The translations under genes were made by a program, and so were the position numbers. From sequence record MW883060: 39,713 nucleotides of DNA; one strand, 5' to 3'. The notes under the pieces are model-generated. The model was given only the letters and a program-made list of their open reading frames with translations. It did not search any database and was not told where the DNA came from. This DNA is from Escherichia phage vB_EcoP_SYGE1. Below, one piece after another: positions 3,655 through 39,713 of this stretch (the first letter of the stretch is position 1; each line of letters begins with the position of its first letter).

Positions 3655-5607
3655 TTATTGGTTCTGTACTAGAATACGAGTTGGTACAGAGTGGCGATCC
3701 TCATCGTTACGGAATGTTCGCCCGTTGTTGGAGATAGTGAACTTCAACCAGCCACCATCAGACGAGATGAAGTAAGACGCATTGTCACCAATAGGCACAG
3801 CGTTCCAGCGTCCGTTAGTCTGAATCCAGATAGTTCTCCATCGGACATCCTGTGAGAGACCTACTGAAACACCACCACCCACATCACCTTTCCACACCTC
3901 AGCCCACCCAGCATTCTTATTAACGTATCGACCATCAGCTTGGGCTTGTGTCAATCGACCATTGACCAAGTTGTTCACTTCTCCTTTGGTGTAGGCGTGT
4001 TCGTTTAGTCGGTGGTTTACCCATGCATCAATGTACATTCCATACTTATCGATATATAGGTTACCATCTGGTGGGATATACCAACCAGTCGAGCTAACAA
4101 GAGTACCATCACTCCTGAAATCGAAGTGAGTCACACGGAGATAATGTCTGATAAAGAAGTTAGCGCCATCGCCATTGTTGTATAAGCACTTAGCATACAG
4201 GTGCTCTTTGCCCCAAATGGTTGCTCGCTCAAGGAGATAGTTTACATCACCCTGCTTCTCAATGTTATGCTGAACATCAGGTGTCAGACTGCTAGTCCAC
4301 TGGTTCCAACCACCACCATGCGTTTTCTTAGTGAAACTTGAAGTGGTAGAATCAATGAAAAAGTTCTTATTAGTGTGCACCCCATCGGCTTTAAGTGAAA
4401 CTGATGTGTTGTTTTGGTAACTATGGAGATATACATCTGCGCTACCTTTGTTTGCACGACCTACGTACCAATCATTTACCCCAGCTTGCGACCCAAACAC
4501 CGCTGTTGTTCCTTCATTATTACTAGAGGTTGACTGTAGGTTAAGTCTTGGTTGTTCAGTGTTGGAGACGAAGCTACCATGTTCAGCATAGAAGTCACCA
4601 TTACTAAGTTTAACCCCTGATTTAAAAGTTGGGGTTGCTCCCTCTACCTTCTCAATGGTTCCAGCTAGGCCATTCATATTACCCAACTTGTTGGCCTCAG
4701 ACTTAGCACGGTCTGCTTCACTCTCAGAGCGGTTTGCCTCAGTGTTGGCTCGGTCAGCATGTCCCTTAGCGGTCTCAGCATGTGCAGCAGCCTTGGCAAC
4801 CTCAGCAGCAGCTTTAGTCACTTCTCCGGCAGCACGATTGGCCTCATCACGGGCACGATTGGCCTCAGAGTTGGAACGGTCAGCTTGCTTCTCGGCCTCA
4901 GCGACACTTGCGGTCATACTGTCAGCATAACCTTTAGCACGATTGGCCTCAGAGTTGGAACGGTCAGCTTGATTCTTGGACTCAACTGCTTGTGCCGTAG
5001 AGACACCTGCCTGCTGGGTCGAGCGGTCAGCTTCACGTTTCGCGCGGTCAGCTTCGTCGCGTGAGCGGTTGGCTTCCCTGTTGGAGCGGTTAGCGTGTTC
5101 ATCAGCTTTAGTAACAGCGTTCCACACAGAGGTCTCACGTTCCTTAATCTGCTTCAGCGGGACGGCATCATAGTCGCCAGTAGCGAACGCTAGGTTAACA
5201 ATCTTACGACCACGGGCATCCAAGTGACCATTATTGTTGACACCGATAGTATCCGCAGTCATGTCACGAGCCTCTTCCGCTACGTGCATTGTTTGAATCT
5301 GAGCAACGTTAAGGTCATACGCACGGAGGATTGAGCCGTCCGTAAAGTCAACCAAGCGGTCGGTCGTGGAGGTTACTCGACGTAACTCGATGGTCGTGTA
5401 GCCATCTGACGGACCCCAAGCCTTGGTCAGTGAGATGGTAGTACGTGTAGCAAAACGGTAGTCCGTATTAATCGTAAGGACCTTGCGGTCTACACCAATA
5501 AGAGTTACCACTACGAACTTACGGGCTAGATACTCAAACGGGATATTAAAATCACGCTTGGAGCCATCTAACTGGTAAGTCAAAACGGTTTTAATTACGT
5601 TAGCCAT
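3655..5607 (-). CDS. Tail fibre protein gp17 (650 aa), chimeric
   Basis: N-terminal ~150 aa match the recalled T7 gp17 tail-attachment domain; the middle is a long acidic/basic coiled-coil with ADRSNSEANRA-type repeats; the C-terminal domain is only distantly T7-like. Confidence 0.9.
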   Translation of the reverse strand: MANVIKTVLTYQLDGSKRDFNIPFEYLARKFVVVTLIGVDRKVLTINTDYRFATRTTISLTKAWGPSDGYTTIELRRVTSTTDRLVDFTDGSILRAYDLNVAQIQTMHVAEEARDMTADTIGVNNNGHLDARGRKIVNLAFATGDYDAVPLKQIKERETSVWNAVTKADEHANRSNREANRSRDEADRAKREADRSTQQAGVSTAQAVESKNQADRSNSEANRAKGYADSMTASVAEAEKQADRSNSEANRARDEANRAAGEVTKAAAEVAKAAAHAETAKGHADRANTEANRSESEADRAKSEANKLGNMNGLAGTIEKVEGATPTFKSGVKLSNGDFYAEHGSFVSNTEQPRLNLQSTSSNNEGTTAVFGSQAGVNDWYVGRANKGSADVYLHSYQNNTSVSLKADGVHTNKNFFIDSTTSSFTKKTHGGGWNQWTSSLTPDVQHNIEKQGDVNYLLERATIWGKEHLYAKCLYNNGDGANFFIRHYLRVTHFDFRSDGTLVSSTGWYIPPDGNLYIDKYGMYIDAWVNHRLNEHAYTKGEVNNLVNGRLTQAQADGRYVNKNAGWAEVWKGDVGGGVSVGLSQDVRWRTIWIQTNGRWNAVPIGDNASYFISSDGGWLKFTISNNGRTFRNDEDRHSVPTRILVQNQ

Positions 5608-31169: not shown

Positions 31170-31740
31170 AACACTTATCCTTATGTTTCTCGTACAGTTC
31201 ACCGTAGAAGTCAGCTTTCGCCATGTCTTTCTCTAAGTAAGCCAGTTCGGACTTCTTACCAGCACGCAGGCGGTACTTAAGGATGTTCCCGAAGCAGTAC
31301 CCTTTGAACTGCTCACGAGTCATTGAACGGGCAATCACTTCGATAGCCTCAATGTCGTCGAACAGCATGTAATGGGAAGGCTTAGTGACACCTTCGATTG
31401 GCTCAGCTGAAGGCTTGTCATCTGTAGGAGTTACCTCTGGTTTATCCAGTTTAGGCTTACGTGGGTCCATCGCTCGGATTTCACCTAAGGTTATCTCTTG
31501 GTCGTTATTTGCTGGGCATAGGTGGCAAGGGACATTATAGCAGAGAAGATCGCAGCCATGTAAATCATCTTGGCGACCTTCGTTGTTGTCTACCAGCTTC
31601 ATGATCATCTCTTGTTCATGTTCGGTCATATCGTTAGCTCCTTTATTACAGGTATGTAGATAACGGTCGTCTTTCTCTAAGCAAGCTATACACCCAGTTG
31701 CTTGTACTGGCTGGTTCTCTTTTTTCCCAAGCTGCACCAT
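31159..31740 (-). CDS. gp1.7 (nucleotide kinase in T7)
   Basis: 193 aa with ATG start; Cys-rich ...ATGCIACLEKDDRY...CHLCPANND... matches recalled T7 gp1.7; the first ~12 residues differ. Confidence 0.85.
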   Translation of the reverse strand: MVQLGKKENQPVQATGCIACLEKDDRYLHTCNKGANDMTEHEQEMIMKLVDNNEGRQDDLHGCDLLCYNVPCHLCPANNDQEITLGEIRAMDPRKPKLDKPEVTPTDDKPSAEPIEGVTKPSHYMLFDDIEAIEVIARSMTREQFKGYCFGNILKYRLRAGKKSELAYLEKDMAKADFYGELYEKHKDKCYDA

Positions 31741-31752
31741 CTAACAGTCCCA

Positions 31753-32013
31753 TCAGAACACCTCCTTGATACGTTTGAGTAACAGACGGACGAACGGGAA
31801 GCGGGTCACTGCCACACTAAGAACCGGACGTTTCTTGTCTATTGCTTTCTCAAAGTCACCACGTGTGATAATGATGTGGACGCTCGGTGCCAAAGTAACT
31901 GTGTTACCAATAAGAGGCAGCTTAGCTCGGCGCTCGCTCTCACATACGATTGAACGGTCAGCACGGCGAACCGTGAAACTCTTAATGCTTTTGTTGAAAT
32001 GAAGTCGAAACAT
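31753..32013 (-). CDS. gp1.6
   Basis: 86 aa with ATG start, directly after phi1.6 (AAAGGAGGTACTATATG). Confidence 0.75.
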
Positions 32014-32018
32014 ATAGT

Positions 32019-32041
32019 ACCTCCTTTAGTGAGTCGTATTA
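32019..32041 (-). promoter_or_regulatory. Phage RNAP promoter phi1.6
   Basis: Minus strand reads TAATACGACTCACTAAAGGAGGTA. Confidence 0.85.
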
Positions 32042-32053
32042 AGCGTGGTCATC

Positions 32054-32155
32054 TTATGTGTCATCATCGTCATCATCACACAGTACAGCATATACAGGGA
32101 TGAGAATGAGTAATGACACCAAGAACAGCATTAGTAATGGCATTAAGTACATCAT
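32054..32155 (-). CDS. Micro-ORF B: 33-aa hydrophobic peptide with poly-Asp tail (gp1.5-like paralog)
   Basis: ATGATG start 5 nt after CTAAGGAGATACCTT; MMYLMPLLMLFLVSLLILIPVYAVLCDDDDDDT; TAA stop. Confidence 0.5.
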   Translation of the reverse strand: MMYLMPLLMLFLVSLLILIPVYAVLCDDDDDDT

Positions 32156-32179
32156 AAGGTATCTCCTTAGTTGGTGTCG

Positions 32180-32272
32180 TCAAGCGTGACCATCTGGCAT
32201 ATCATCATCGTCAGTATAGTGAAGCGCAAGGCATCCTAAGATGACAATGAGTAATGGCATTAAGTACATCAT
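32180..32272 (-). CDS. Micro-ORF A: 30-aa hydrophobic peptide with acidic tail (gp1.5-like)
   Basis: ATGATG start 7 nt after the promoter-borne GGAGG; MMYLMPLLIVILGCLALHYTDDDDMPDGHA; TGA stop. Confidence 0.5.
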   Translation of the reverse strand: MMYLMPLLIVILGCLALHYTDDDDMPDGHA

Positions 32273-32278
32273 GATGTG

Positions 32279-32301
32279 TACCTCCTTTAGTGAGTCGTAT
32301 T
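32279..32301 (-). promoter_or_regulatory. Phage RNAP promoter phi1.5
   Basis: Minus strand reads TAATACGACTCACTAAAGGAGGTACA. Confidence 0.85.
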
Positions 32302-32332
32302 AAACGCAGAAAGGCCCACCAGAAGGTGAGCC
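32302..32332 (-). terminator. Early terminator TE for host RNAP (rho-independent)
   Basis: Minus strand GGCTCACC-TTCT-GGTGGGCC hairpin followed by TTTCTGCGTTT, immediately 3' of the ligase gene. Confidence 0.75.
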
Positions 32333-32339
32333 AGTGTGG

Positions 32340-33356
32340 TTACATTTTCTCTTGAGGGTTGTCCTCGGTGCCACGGAAGCAGGTGAAGGAAGGGTGTCGC
32401 AATGAGCCATCGGGTGTTTCTTCCATAAATCCAATCTGGCAAGTCCACCCGTTATAGTAGTCATCGCCATGTTCTTTAACGTTAGCTGTAAATTCATCCA
32501 TTAAGGTGCGAGAGATGTTTGTGGCGTTAACTACACGACCACTCTCAAGAAGCACCTCAAATCCGATGACTTTACCTTCATTTGCTAAACCTTCTGTTCC
32601 CCACACAAGACCCTGAATAATACCATCAGCCTCGTTCTCTGGCTTAAGTTTCCACCAGCCGGACTTCTTACCGCGCTTATAGATGCACATCGGGTCTTTC
32701 ACAATGAGACCCTCATGGCCTTCTTCACGCTTCTTCTCATACAGTTGCTGTAGTTCTACCATATCGTAGACCTCGTAAGATTCAGCCGCTTGCCATTCGA
32801 TTTCAGGGAAGTATTCCTGTAGCAGAGGCAGCATGTTCTTAACGTGTTCCTGCATGAGCAACGTCATGACATCACAGTCTTCTCCAGACTCCACGATGTG
32901 CAGCGGGAGGATAGCGTACAGTTTGACACTCAGACGTTTGGTGTCCAACGCGAACTCAACCTTGGACCCTTTGAGCGGAGGTACACCGCCAACGTCGAAC
33001 TCAAAGTTATTCTTGTTGAGCCACTTGGTGCGCAGTAGGCCAGACCCAGTGTTAAAGTCTACGCCCTTGACCATGAGTTCACCATCGAGCATAAAGCCAT
33101 CTTTGTAGAAACAACGGTCATCGCTCAGCAGACGCTTCCAGCGAACATCAAACCCGTTTAAGTACTCCATCGCCGGAATCGGTTTAGACACACGAGAGAG
33201 CCAGCAGCAGTTAGCAGTATTGTCTACGCAGATGTTACCACGCACACCATCGTACTTAATGTCAGCAATAAGATACCCAGCGTTATCCAGAGCTTTCTTA
33301 ATGGCAGACTCTACGAAAGACACGGCTTTAAACGGGCTAGTCTTAATGTTCATCAT
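32340..33356 (-). CDS. ATP-dependent DNA ligase gp1.3
   Basis: 338 aa with ATGATG start; adenylation motif region IADIKYDGVRG; appears ~20 aa shorter than recalled T7 ligase (359 aa). Confidence 0.9.
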   Translation of the reverse strand: MMNIKTSPFKAVSFVESAIKKALDNAGYLIADIKYDGVRGNICVDNTANCCWLSRVSKPIPAMEYLNGFDVRWKRLLSDDRCFYKDGFMLDGELMVKGVDFNTGSGLLRTKWLNKNNFEFDVGGVPPLKGSKVEFALDTKRLSVKLYAILPLHIVESGEDCDVMTLLMQEHVKNMLPLLQEYFPEIEWQAAESYEVYDMVELQQLYEKKREEGHEGLIVKDPMCIYKRGKKSGWWKLKPENEADGIIQGLVWGTEGLANEGKVIGFEVLLESGRVVNATNISRTLMDEFTANVKEHGDDYYNGWTCQIGFMEETPDGSLRHPSFTCFRGTEDNPQEKM

Positions 33357-39339: not shown

Positions 39340-39540
39340 CGTCTATAGGATAGGCTTTAGGCTGGTCTTTAGGCTGGTCTTTAGAAGATACTTTAAGATA
39401 GGCGTTGACTTGATGGGTCTTTATGGTTAGGCTTTAGGTGTTGGCTTTAGGATGGACGTTAGGAGGTGACTTTAGGAGGTGACTTTAGGAGGTGACTTTA
39501 GGAGGTGACTTTAGGAGGTGACTTTAGGAGGTTGTAACAG
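39340..39540. repeat. Left-end repeat array, including 5 perfect tandem copies of a 13-bp unit (aggaggtgacttt) at 39461..39525 plus a partial copy
   Basis: Dispersed ggctttagg/ggtctttag motifs, then aggaggtgacttt x5, immediately next to the terminal repeat. Confidence 0.85.
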
Positions 39541-39543
39541 ATA

Positions 39544-39713
39544 AGGGTCTCAAAGAGACACTCAAGGCAACACTCAAAGAAACACTCAAAGACAAACCCA
39601 AGGGTCATCCCAACCCTTTAGGGACCCTCAAAGTCAACTGAAAGTTGACTCAAGGTGATTGGCTGGGCTTTAGGACCCCTATGGGGGGAACTTTGGGTCC
39701 GTACACTGTGAGA
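39544..39713. repeat. Direct terminal repeat, left-end copy in conventional T7 orientation
   Basis: Identical to 1..170. Confidence 0.9.

Follow-up and report, generated by a model that had tools for sequence, protein, structure and literature searches.

A predicted pair of membrane peptides encoded by gene 1.5 and its tandem paralog in a T7-group phage

The compact genomes of T7-group phages rarely contain gene duplications, and the locus described here raises the question of how two adjacent and similar micro-ORFs came to lie between the promoters phi1.5 and phi1.6, where T7 has a single gene, and what the two might encode. The window, by which we mean the whole 39,713-base stretch of DNA that was analyzed, is a complete Teseptimavirus genome presented as its reverse complement and is ~ 94% identical to T7 and 13a. 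A preliminary description of this DNA had reported two minus-strand ORFs of 30 and 33 codons between the two promoters, and both were located there (ORF A, 32180..32272; ORF B, 32054..32155). It had also stated that T7 has a single 29-codon gene 1.5 at this position as well as a gene 1.4 that is absent from the window. The annotated T7 record does contain both genes, gene 1.4 being 51 codons long, and in the window the interval between the ligase stop codon and phi1.5 holds only a 37-nt region with the terminator TE, gene 1.4 being absent from 13a as well.

Layout of the locus and identity of the first ORF

On the minus strand, the elements follow each other in the order gene 1.3, TE, phi1.5, ORF A, a 24-nt spacer, ORF B, phi1.6, and gene 1.6. 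The DNA ligase gene 1.3 (33356..32340) is followed by the early terminator hairpin for E. coli RNA polymerase (32302..32332), annotated as TE in 13a and T7, in which the stem-loop GGCTCACC-TTCT-GGTGGGCC runs into a T-rich tail. Its position upstream of both micro-ORFs places them in the class II region that is transcribed by T7 RNA polymerase. The class II T7 promoter TAATACGACTCACTAAAGGAGGT is present as phi1.5 (32280..32302) and again as phi1.6 (32019..32041), both annotated under these names in 13a and T7. The 3′ end of phi1.5 also provides ORF A with its Shine-Dalgarno site and is followed by a 9-nt leader, while a 7-nt leader separates phi1.6 from gene 1.6 (31753..32013, 86 aa, placed from annotated relatives), which bounds the duplicated unit described below on its 3′ side. 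A scan of the region for sigma-70 promoters and intrinsic terminators gave results at chance level. An ORF on the opposite, plus strand (32058..32189, 43 aa) was rejected, since all genes of this phage group lie on one strand.

ORF A encodes the 30-residue peptide MMYLMPLLIVILGCLALHYTDDDDMPDGHA and is preceded by the Shine-Dalgarno sequence AAGGAGGT with a 7-nt gap to the start codon. The peptide consists of a 17-residue apolar N-terminal helix, a GCLALH core, and the acidic tail DDDDMPDGHA. It matched PHROG 12128 over residues 1-30 (E = 7e-20), and precomputed annotation records PF26858 (Phage_T7_1_5) for a protein identical to it on nine public contigs. An alignment of 23 public gp1.5 variants, which are 80-100% identical to ORF A (the first row, P0002), revealed invariant residues at M2, Y3, P6-L8, throughout G13-C14-L15-A16-L17-H18, and in the terminal P-D-G-H-A, all of which are present in ORF A. 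The location of ORF A, directly after phi1.5 and before phi1.6 and gene 1.6, is likewise that of the gp1.5 family. Profile, alignment, and position together identify ORF A as an ordinary gene 1.5 of T7-group phages. Literature searches on gene 1.5/gp1.5 and on T7 ribosome profiling produced functional data from one source only, a 2026 preprint (10.64898/2026.01.27.700999), in which T7 Gp1.5 expressed from pBAD33 was toxic in minimal medium, the toxicity was suppressed by stringent-like rpoB alleles, and none of RelA, SpoT, and RpoZ was found as a partner of the protein.

ORF B, its distribution and a private allele

In the window, ORF B encodes the 33-residue peptide MMYLMPLLMLFLVSLLILIPVYAVLCDDDDDDT, with the tail DDDDDDT, and its Shine-Dalgarno sequence, TAAGGAG, again stands at a 7-nt gap from the start codon, in agreement with the earlier claim that each ORF has a ribosome-binding site of its own. 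When 50,697 phage records were searched at the DNA level, five contained the ORF B segment, namely those of the BASEL phages Bas64, Bas65, Bas103, and Bas104 and of Teseptimavirus PDP351P2, or 5 of the 158 matching GenBank records. The gene is annotated as "hypothetical protein" in four of these five records, and the PDP351P2 record is unannotated. Protein-identity look-ups added nine more carriers, all of them Logan/ENA contigs, so that the sample used below comprises the window and 14 further genomes or contigs, 15 independent assemblies from various laboratories. The contexts upstream of the A-B pair differ among carriers, with TE only, a homing endonuclease, or gene 1.4 in this position, indicating that the pair either is older than those rearrangements or has spread by recombination.

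Other collections were searched by pattern, protein, and profile. Seven gp1.5 loci in IMG/VR each contained the shared 23-nt start motif once, and therefore no tandem copy, and scans of IMG/VR and JGI metagenomes for ORF B-specific and relic-specific patterns returned no match. An exhaustive HMMER search of 1.84 billion representative proteins with P0001, the cluster that contains ORF B, recovered P0001 itself and no other protein, and a word-indexed protein search with the 40-aa Bas104 form matched one cluster, again P0001. The 38-aa form gave no tblastn match in the 50,697 phage records, a search in which the low-complexity filter probably masks the query. Against phrog_12128, ORF B had no match at E ≤ 1, and it matched weakly only unrelated PHROGs without an assigned function (phrog_7843 at 4e-4 and phrog_30457 at 1e-3). 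The ORF B proteins of 37-38 aa carry no recorded Pfam family, and NCBIfam, PADLOC, and a Pfam copy without the PF26858 model yielded no significant family for either ORF. ORF B also lacks the invariant GCLALH and PDGHA, having PVYAVL(R/C) and QD(D/G)HA instead, and the gp1.5 residues that it keeps are limited to the N-terminal MMYLMPLL and the terminal HA. These profile and motif tests place ORF B outside the gp1.5 family. Its distribution is lineage-restricted, and the homology described below marks it as a tandem paralog of gene 1.5. The locus is not mentioned in the first BASEL collection paper, and ORF B is not discussed in the literature found by searches on gene 1.5/gp1.5. ORF A was already known, and ORF B is in GenBank too, but without comment.

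The length of ORF B in the window is exceptional. All 14 other copies encode 38-40 aa, end in QD(D/G)HA, and have a TAA stop codon that overlaps the first bases of phi1.6. In the 15-genome alignment, codon 34 is CAA in 14 of the 15 copies and TAA (32054-32056) in the window alone, and the former end of the gene, the DDHA codons with the ancestral TAA, is recognizable downstream (32039..32053). The nonsense change costs ORF B its last five residues, and 33 of 38 codons stay open. Position 26 is Cys in the window and in contig L011 and Arg in the other 13 copies, and the nonsense change looks recent, since L011 has the same Cys yet keeps the Gln codon. The 33 codons first reported for ORF B are therefore correct for the window but do not represent the natural length of the gene, and the alignment identifies the shorter form as a private truncation of the window.

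The duplicated unit and the promoter relic

The preliminary description had noted that the first 23 nt of the two ORFs are identical and that their 3′ ends are similar, and both statements were borne out. The window contains exactly two copies of the 23-mer ATGATGTACTTAATGCCATTACT, 117 nt apart, and none of 100 shuffles contains it. At the other end, repeat family D6 pairs the 3′ end of ORF A and the spacer with the 3′ end of ORF B and phi1.6 at 70% over 47 nt, ungapped. Family D5, from the same repeat search of the window, has copies spaced by 117 nt and also by 24 nt. This spacing corresponds to a 24-nt in-frame tandem repeat within ORF B (32108..32155), in which unit 1 (32132-32155) encodes MMYLMPLL and unit 2 (32108-32131) encodes MLFLVSLL. 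In the offset test, the first 33 nt of ORF A matched ORF B at 27-28/33 positions at offset 0 and at 26-27/33 at offset 24, while the next best offset gave 16/33 and none of 20000 codon shuffles reached the observed value. The internal repeat thus supplies exactly the 8 codons that ORF B has in excess of ORF A. For comparison, a hypothetical ancestor was built from ORF A with its first 8 codons doubled. This ancestor (MMYLMPLL MMYLMPLL IVILGCLALHYTDDDDMPDGHA) aligned to the 38-aa ORF B (MMYLMPLL MLFLVSLL ILIPVYAVLRDDDDDDTQDDHA) with zero gaps, and 31 of 114 nt differed between it and the full-length gene (83/114 identical; ~ 27% divergence). The proposal of a diverged local duplication is well supported by this level of difference and by the recurrence of the arrangement in 15 independent assemblies.

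Divergence is unevenly distributed along ORF B. The 5′ 24 nt are far less diverged from ORF A than the remainder of the gene, for which a simple one-step model is insufficient and a later gene conversion or second recombination must be invoked. Most relatives have CCACTACTG in the start region of ORF B, compared to CCATTACTA in the window. The exact 23-nt identity between ORF A and ORF B is therefore partly private to the window, where it may have arisen by gene conversion from ORF A or by recurrent mutation.

The spacer between the two ORFs (32156..32182 including the stop codon of ORF A, TGACGACACCAACTAAGGAGATACCTT) reads TGACGACACC(A)ACTAAGGAGATACCTT from this stop codon on, and it aligned to the promoter TAATACGACTCACTAAAGGAG better than did 4,981 of 5,000 shuffles. 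It keeps the Shine-Dalgarno sequence TAAGGAG (32163-32169) and a 7-nt leader, while the promoter core has decayed. The T7-type class II consensus (-17 to +6, TAATACGACTCACTA(A/T)AGG) was not matched in the spacer at ≤ 3 mismatches, and the best alignment to phi1.5 requires indels as well as mismatches within the recognition region (-12 to -5). The leader length of 7 nt is shared with all phi1.6 leaders examined, while all phi1.5 leaders have 9 nt, indicating that the duplicated unit extended from the start codon of gene 1.5 to the start codon of gene 1.6, with its junction at the ATG. Among the genomes, the spacer varies in both length and sequence (CACCACTAA, CACCAACTAA, CACCGACTAA, CACCCGCTAA) while GGAG and its distance to the ATG are kept, as would fit a promoter that is free of selection next to a ribosome-binding site that is still selected. 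These comparisons identify the A-B spacer as a decayed promoter of the phi1.6 type that retains its ribosome-binding site alone. Contig L012 has the 5′ half of the relic joined to the 3′ half of phi1.6 (…GCTTGACGACACCACTAAAGGAGACACTATATG) and lacks ORF B, and its gene 1.6 has lost its own consensus promoter. This junction marks the loss of ORF B as a recombination between the relic and phi1.6.

The route from tandem duplication through promoter decay to divergence is well known in evolution, and the history read from the sequence of this locus has four steps. A segment of ~ 117 nt, comprising gene 1.5, phi1.6, and the phi1.6 leader, was duplicated in tandem from the start codon of gene 1.5 to that of gene 1.6, and the middle copy of phi1.6 decayed by mismatches and indels in its polymerase-recognition core while GGAG and the 7-nt leader survived. 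The second copy of the gene then acquired the in-frame 24-nt repeat, in which its first 8 codons are doubled, and came to differ by ~ 27%, with GCLALH becoming PVYAVL(R/C) and the run of Asp growing from 3-4 to 6-8 residues, and a recent change of CAA to TAA trimmed ORF B by five residues in the window. The duplication can be read in this way step by step, from the 117-nt copy through promoter death, the 8-codon repeat, and nonsense truncation to deletion in L012. Beyond the preliminary description, the comparisons add the 24-nt internal repeat of ORF B, the dead-promoter spacer with its recombination in L012, the private truncation in the window, and the uncommented annotation of ORF B in four GenBank records.

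Predicted products, rival readings and known systems

A hydrophobic helix with an acidic tail had been described for both products, and helix prediction agreed. ORF A has an apolar run of 17 residues with a dGapp (Hessa scale, summed) of about -1.5 kcal/mol and a net charge of -5, and ORF B has an apolar run of 25-26 residues with a dGapp of about -3.1 for the best 19-residue segment and a net charge of -6 in the window and -7 at full length. AF2 models contained one helix each, at residues 4-22 in ORF A and 4-26 in ORF B, with low-confidence tails. There is no Lys or Arg in ORF A or in the ORF B of the window, which leaves the positive-inside rule without purchase for a prediction of the topology.

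From the annotated maps of T7 and 13a, we infer that T7 RNA polymerase, starting at phi1.5 downstream of TE, transcribes both ORFs together during the class II period, and each ORF would use its own Shine-Dalgarno site for translation. The product of each is predicted to be a single-pass inner-membrane helix with a short, strongly acidic, and unstructured tail. The predicted membrane segment would be marginal in ORF A, where 17 residues are short for a bilayer-spanning helix, and full-length in ORF B (25 residues), a difference that the internal repeat would make. The peptides would act as dispensable accessory factors that disturb host physiology at the membrane, rather than as replication or structural proteins. 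The toxicity of T7 Gp1.5 in minimal medium is the one experimental hint in this direction, and likewise for the host interaction that the preliminary description had considered. A co-transcribed pair of predicted single-pass membrane peptides is the most likely arrangement, and we give a probability of roughly three in four to the overall explanation in which ORF A is gene 1.5, ORF B is its tandem paralog, and the two form a predicted accessory membrane-peptide pair.

Whether ORF B is maintained by selection was assessed from its variation. Nucleotide diversity was 0.028 in ORF B, close to the 0.029 of gene 1.6 and below the 0.045 of the relic spacer. After ~ 20 substitutions from the reconstructed ancestor, the 25-residue helix of ORF B contains no D, E, K, R, H, N, or Q and no stop codon, and neutral simulations gave such a polar-free helix at frequencies between 1% (kappa 1) and 5% (kappa 4). 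Present-day copies differ by 7 synonymous and 8 non-synonymous changes (P = 0.03 against neutrality at kappa 1 and 0.13 at kappa 4), and with transitions making up 15 of the 16 nucleotide changes, the result is not significant under so strong a bias and the counting is underpowered. The in-frame indels of ORF B sit in the GAT/GAC run, a sequence prone to three-base slippage in any case, and are neutral as evidence. ORF B is truncated in the window and deleted in L012, and is thus clearly dispensable. Selection maintaining ORF B is suggested by these sequence comparisons, at the level of suggestive evidence.

Several other explanations were weighed against that of a maintained pair. The ORFs are very short, and short tandem repeats between identical 23-nt promoters are a classic site of assembly error, both of which would fit a repeat created in sequencing or assembly or, for the ORFs, chance frames in a non-coding promoter spacer. 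This is refuted by the comparative data and has practically no probability left, as the two ORFs are diverged and unequal in length, the arrangement recurs in 15 isolates and metagenome contigs assembled independently in different laboratories, ORF A belongs to a curated gene family, and an Rfam search of 31700-32700 found no RNA family; the assembly duplication that the preliminary description had named as fatal to its proposal is accordingly not what the data contain. A decaying, non-functional ORF B, left by a neutral recombination accident and open in frame because it is short and young, is also unlikely, though it has more in its favor. The absence of the invariant gp1.5 motifs, the nonsense mutation in the window, the deletion in L012, and a synonymous to non-synonymous ratio not significantly below neutral at realistic transition bias would all be expected of such a duplicate, as would its confinement to a small clade (the 5/158 GenBank records, 0/7 IMG/VR gp1.5 loci, and no relatives among 1.84 billion proteins). 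On the other side stand the full ORF B frame in 14/15 copies, a Shine-Dalgarno sequence kept beside relic bases that vary in sequence and length, the diversity values, and a helix free of polar or charged residues and of stops that arises rarely under neutrality, and the nonsense mutation removes just the five terminal residues.

The remaining alternatives concern what the peptides do. In one, gp1.5 (ORF A) would be a minimal lipoprotein precursor, its helix a signal peptide ending in the lipobox [IV][VIL]G-C14, processing of which would release a lipid-anchored acidic peptide of 17 residues, and the Cys-less ORF B would be a non-lipidated and truly membrane-spanning derivative. The invariance of G13-C14 in the 23 gp1.5 variants speaks for this, as do the shortness of the 17-residue apolar run for a stable transmembrane helix and the placement of the motif at the C-terminal end of that run. 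With the lipobox consensus L[ASTVI][GAS]C, the sequences IVGC, IIGC, and ILGC agree fully or nearly so; the window has ILGC, with a Leu at -2 that is outside the strict consensus, and its relatives have IVGC or IIGC. The usual rule for lipoprotein signal peptides (PROSITE PS51257), however, calls for a Cys at 15-35 and a basic N-terminus, and ORF A has its Cys at position 14 and no Lys or Arg in the N-region. No NCBIfam or Pfam lipoprotein model matches, and L15-A16-L17-H18 are as invariant as G13-C14, suggesting a motif embedded in a helix and not a cleavage site, so that we regard lipidation as improbable. In another, ORF B would be a neofunctionalized partner of gp1.5, its longer helix stably spanning the membrane, pairing with the marginal 17-residue helix of gp1.5, and modulating the toxicity of gp1.5 to the host as antagonist or co-factor. 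We consider such a partnership a distinctly long shot; if true, it would represent a two-peptide membrane module derived from a promoter-flanked tandem duplication, and a traceable case in which a micro-protein changed its membrane behavior through an internal repeat of 8 codons. A role as holin or antiholin was rejected from the position of the pair in the early class II expression region, from the ligase gene to gene 1.6, and from the acidic C-termini (-5, -6).

The accessory-pair explanation otherwise describes an ordinary polymorphism of accessory genes, and nothing points to a new kind of system. The locus provides natural gp1.5 alleles, namely isolates with both genes, L012 with ORF A alone, and the window with its truncated ORF B, for one of the last T7 genes without an assigned function, and Bas64 and Bas65 are publicly available carriers.

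Among known systems, ORF A compares most directly to the T7 gene 1.5 protein (Y15_BPT7; PF26858; PHROG 12128), which likewise lies between phi1.5 and phi1.6, is of about equal length, and shares ~ 90% identity with it. The descent of ORF B from the same gene is indicated by DNA homology over its full length, the common MMYLMPLL start, and the terminal HA, whereas ORF B is 8 codons longer than gp1.5 and has a run of 6-8 Asp residues where gp1.5 has 3-4. Its direct orthologs are bas65_0018 (QXV80643.1, JacobBurckhardt), bas64_0019 (JeanTinguely), Bas103_0018, and Bas104_0019, all recorded as 'hypothetical protein' at the same position in cassettes with 92-96% nucleotide identity to the window; they encode 38-40 aa and end in QDDHA, while the copy in the window stops at codon 34. 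Holin/antiholin pairs such as lambda S105/S107 also consist of two small membrane peptides, one with extra N-terminal residues, but this is an analogy only, as the lambda proteins arise from dual starts of one gene in a lysis cassette and have a basic C-terminus, while here there are two genes in the class II region with acidic C-termini, and T7 has a holin of its own, gp17.5. Another comparison is with the small single-pass membrane proteins of < 50 aa from bacteria and phages (such as E. coli KdpF, AcrZ, and MgtS, or the T7 gene 1.4 protein), which are of similar size, with a single predicted helix and without an enzymatic domain, and which typically act by binding larger membrane proteins. 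ORF A and ORF B have no sequence relationship to these proteins, and their uninterrupted poly-Asp tails and complete lack of basic residues are unusual within that class.

Gene gain and loss downstream of the DNA ligase gene

The DNA ligase gene (32340-33356) encodes a protein of 338 amino acids, which is similar in length to the 13a ligase (340 amino acids, from a 1,023-nt coding sequence) and shorter than the T7 ligase of 359 amino acids. In relatives, a homing endonuclease gene or gene 1.4 is inserted between the ligase gene and the class II promoter phi1.5, indicating that the interval downstream of the ligase gene is a hotspot of both gain and loss for the small membrane ORFs 1.4, 1.5, and ORF B, the tandem paralog of gene 1.5. 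Loss is seen in L012, a Logan contig from SRR32664192, in which both ORF B and the consensus phi1.6 promoter are missing. At ~793-818 of this locus, 3′ of the gene 1.5 ortholog (ORF A), the 5′ half of the relic, a decayed phi1.6-type promoter, is fused to the 3′ half of phi1.6, and the hybrid runs straight into gene 1.6. L012 is a deletion derivative that arose in nature, and since it has neither ORF B nor a consensus phi1.6, transcription of gene 1.6 there presumably relies on read-through from phi1.5.

Invariant residues of gp1.5 and the Asp tract of ORF B

Alignment of the gp1.5 family (23 variants) revealed an invariant G13-C14 pair, encoded in ORF A at 32231-32236 and preceded across the family by I/V and then V/I/L. 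This motif is lipobox-like and closes a 13-residue apolar segment devoid of any basic residue. As H18 and H29 are likewise invariant, metal binding by gp1.5 through Cys, His, and Asp would be an alternative possibility. The Asp run of ORF B contains six residues in most copies, seven in L010, and eight in L007 (Bas104), a variation in length that results from slippage of GAT/GAC triplets. In three loci (L009, L017, and L018), the run is broken, reading DDDYDG or DDDYDD.

Repeat arrays and the early terminator

At 4685-5110, a 48-nt unit occurs in five diverged copies whose spacings are multiples of 42 nt, equal to a period of 14 codons. Their position places them in the region of tail-fibre gene 17 and is suggestive of a periodic segment, either shaft or coiled coil. 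Near the end of the window that corresponds to the left end of the phage's genetic map, ~7 tandem units of 13 nt (GACTTTAGGAGGT on the + strand) occupy 39417-39545. This is probably the short-repeat array that adjoins the terminal repeat, as known from T7. The loop of the early terminator (TE) hairpin is TTCT (32321-32324), whereas T7, 13a, and most relatives have TTCG (a UUCG tetraloop) and contig L011 has TTAG; the stem does not differ.
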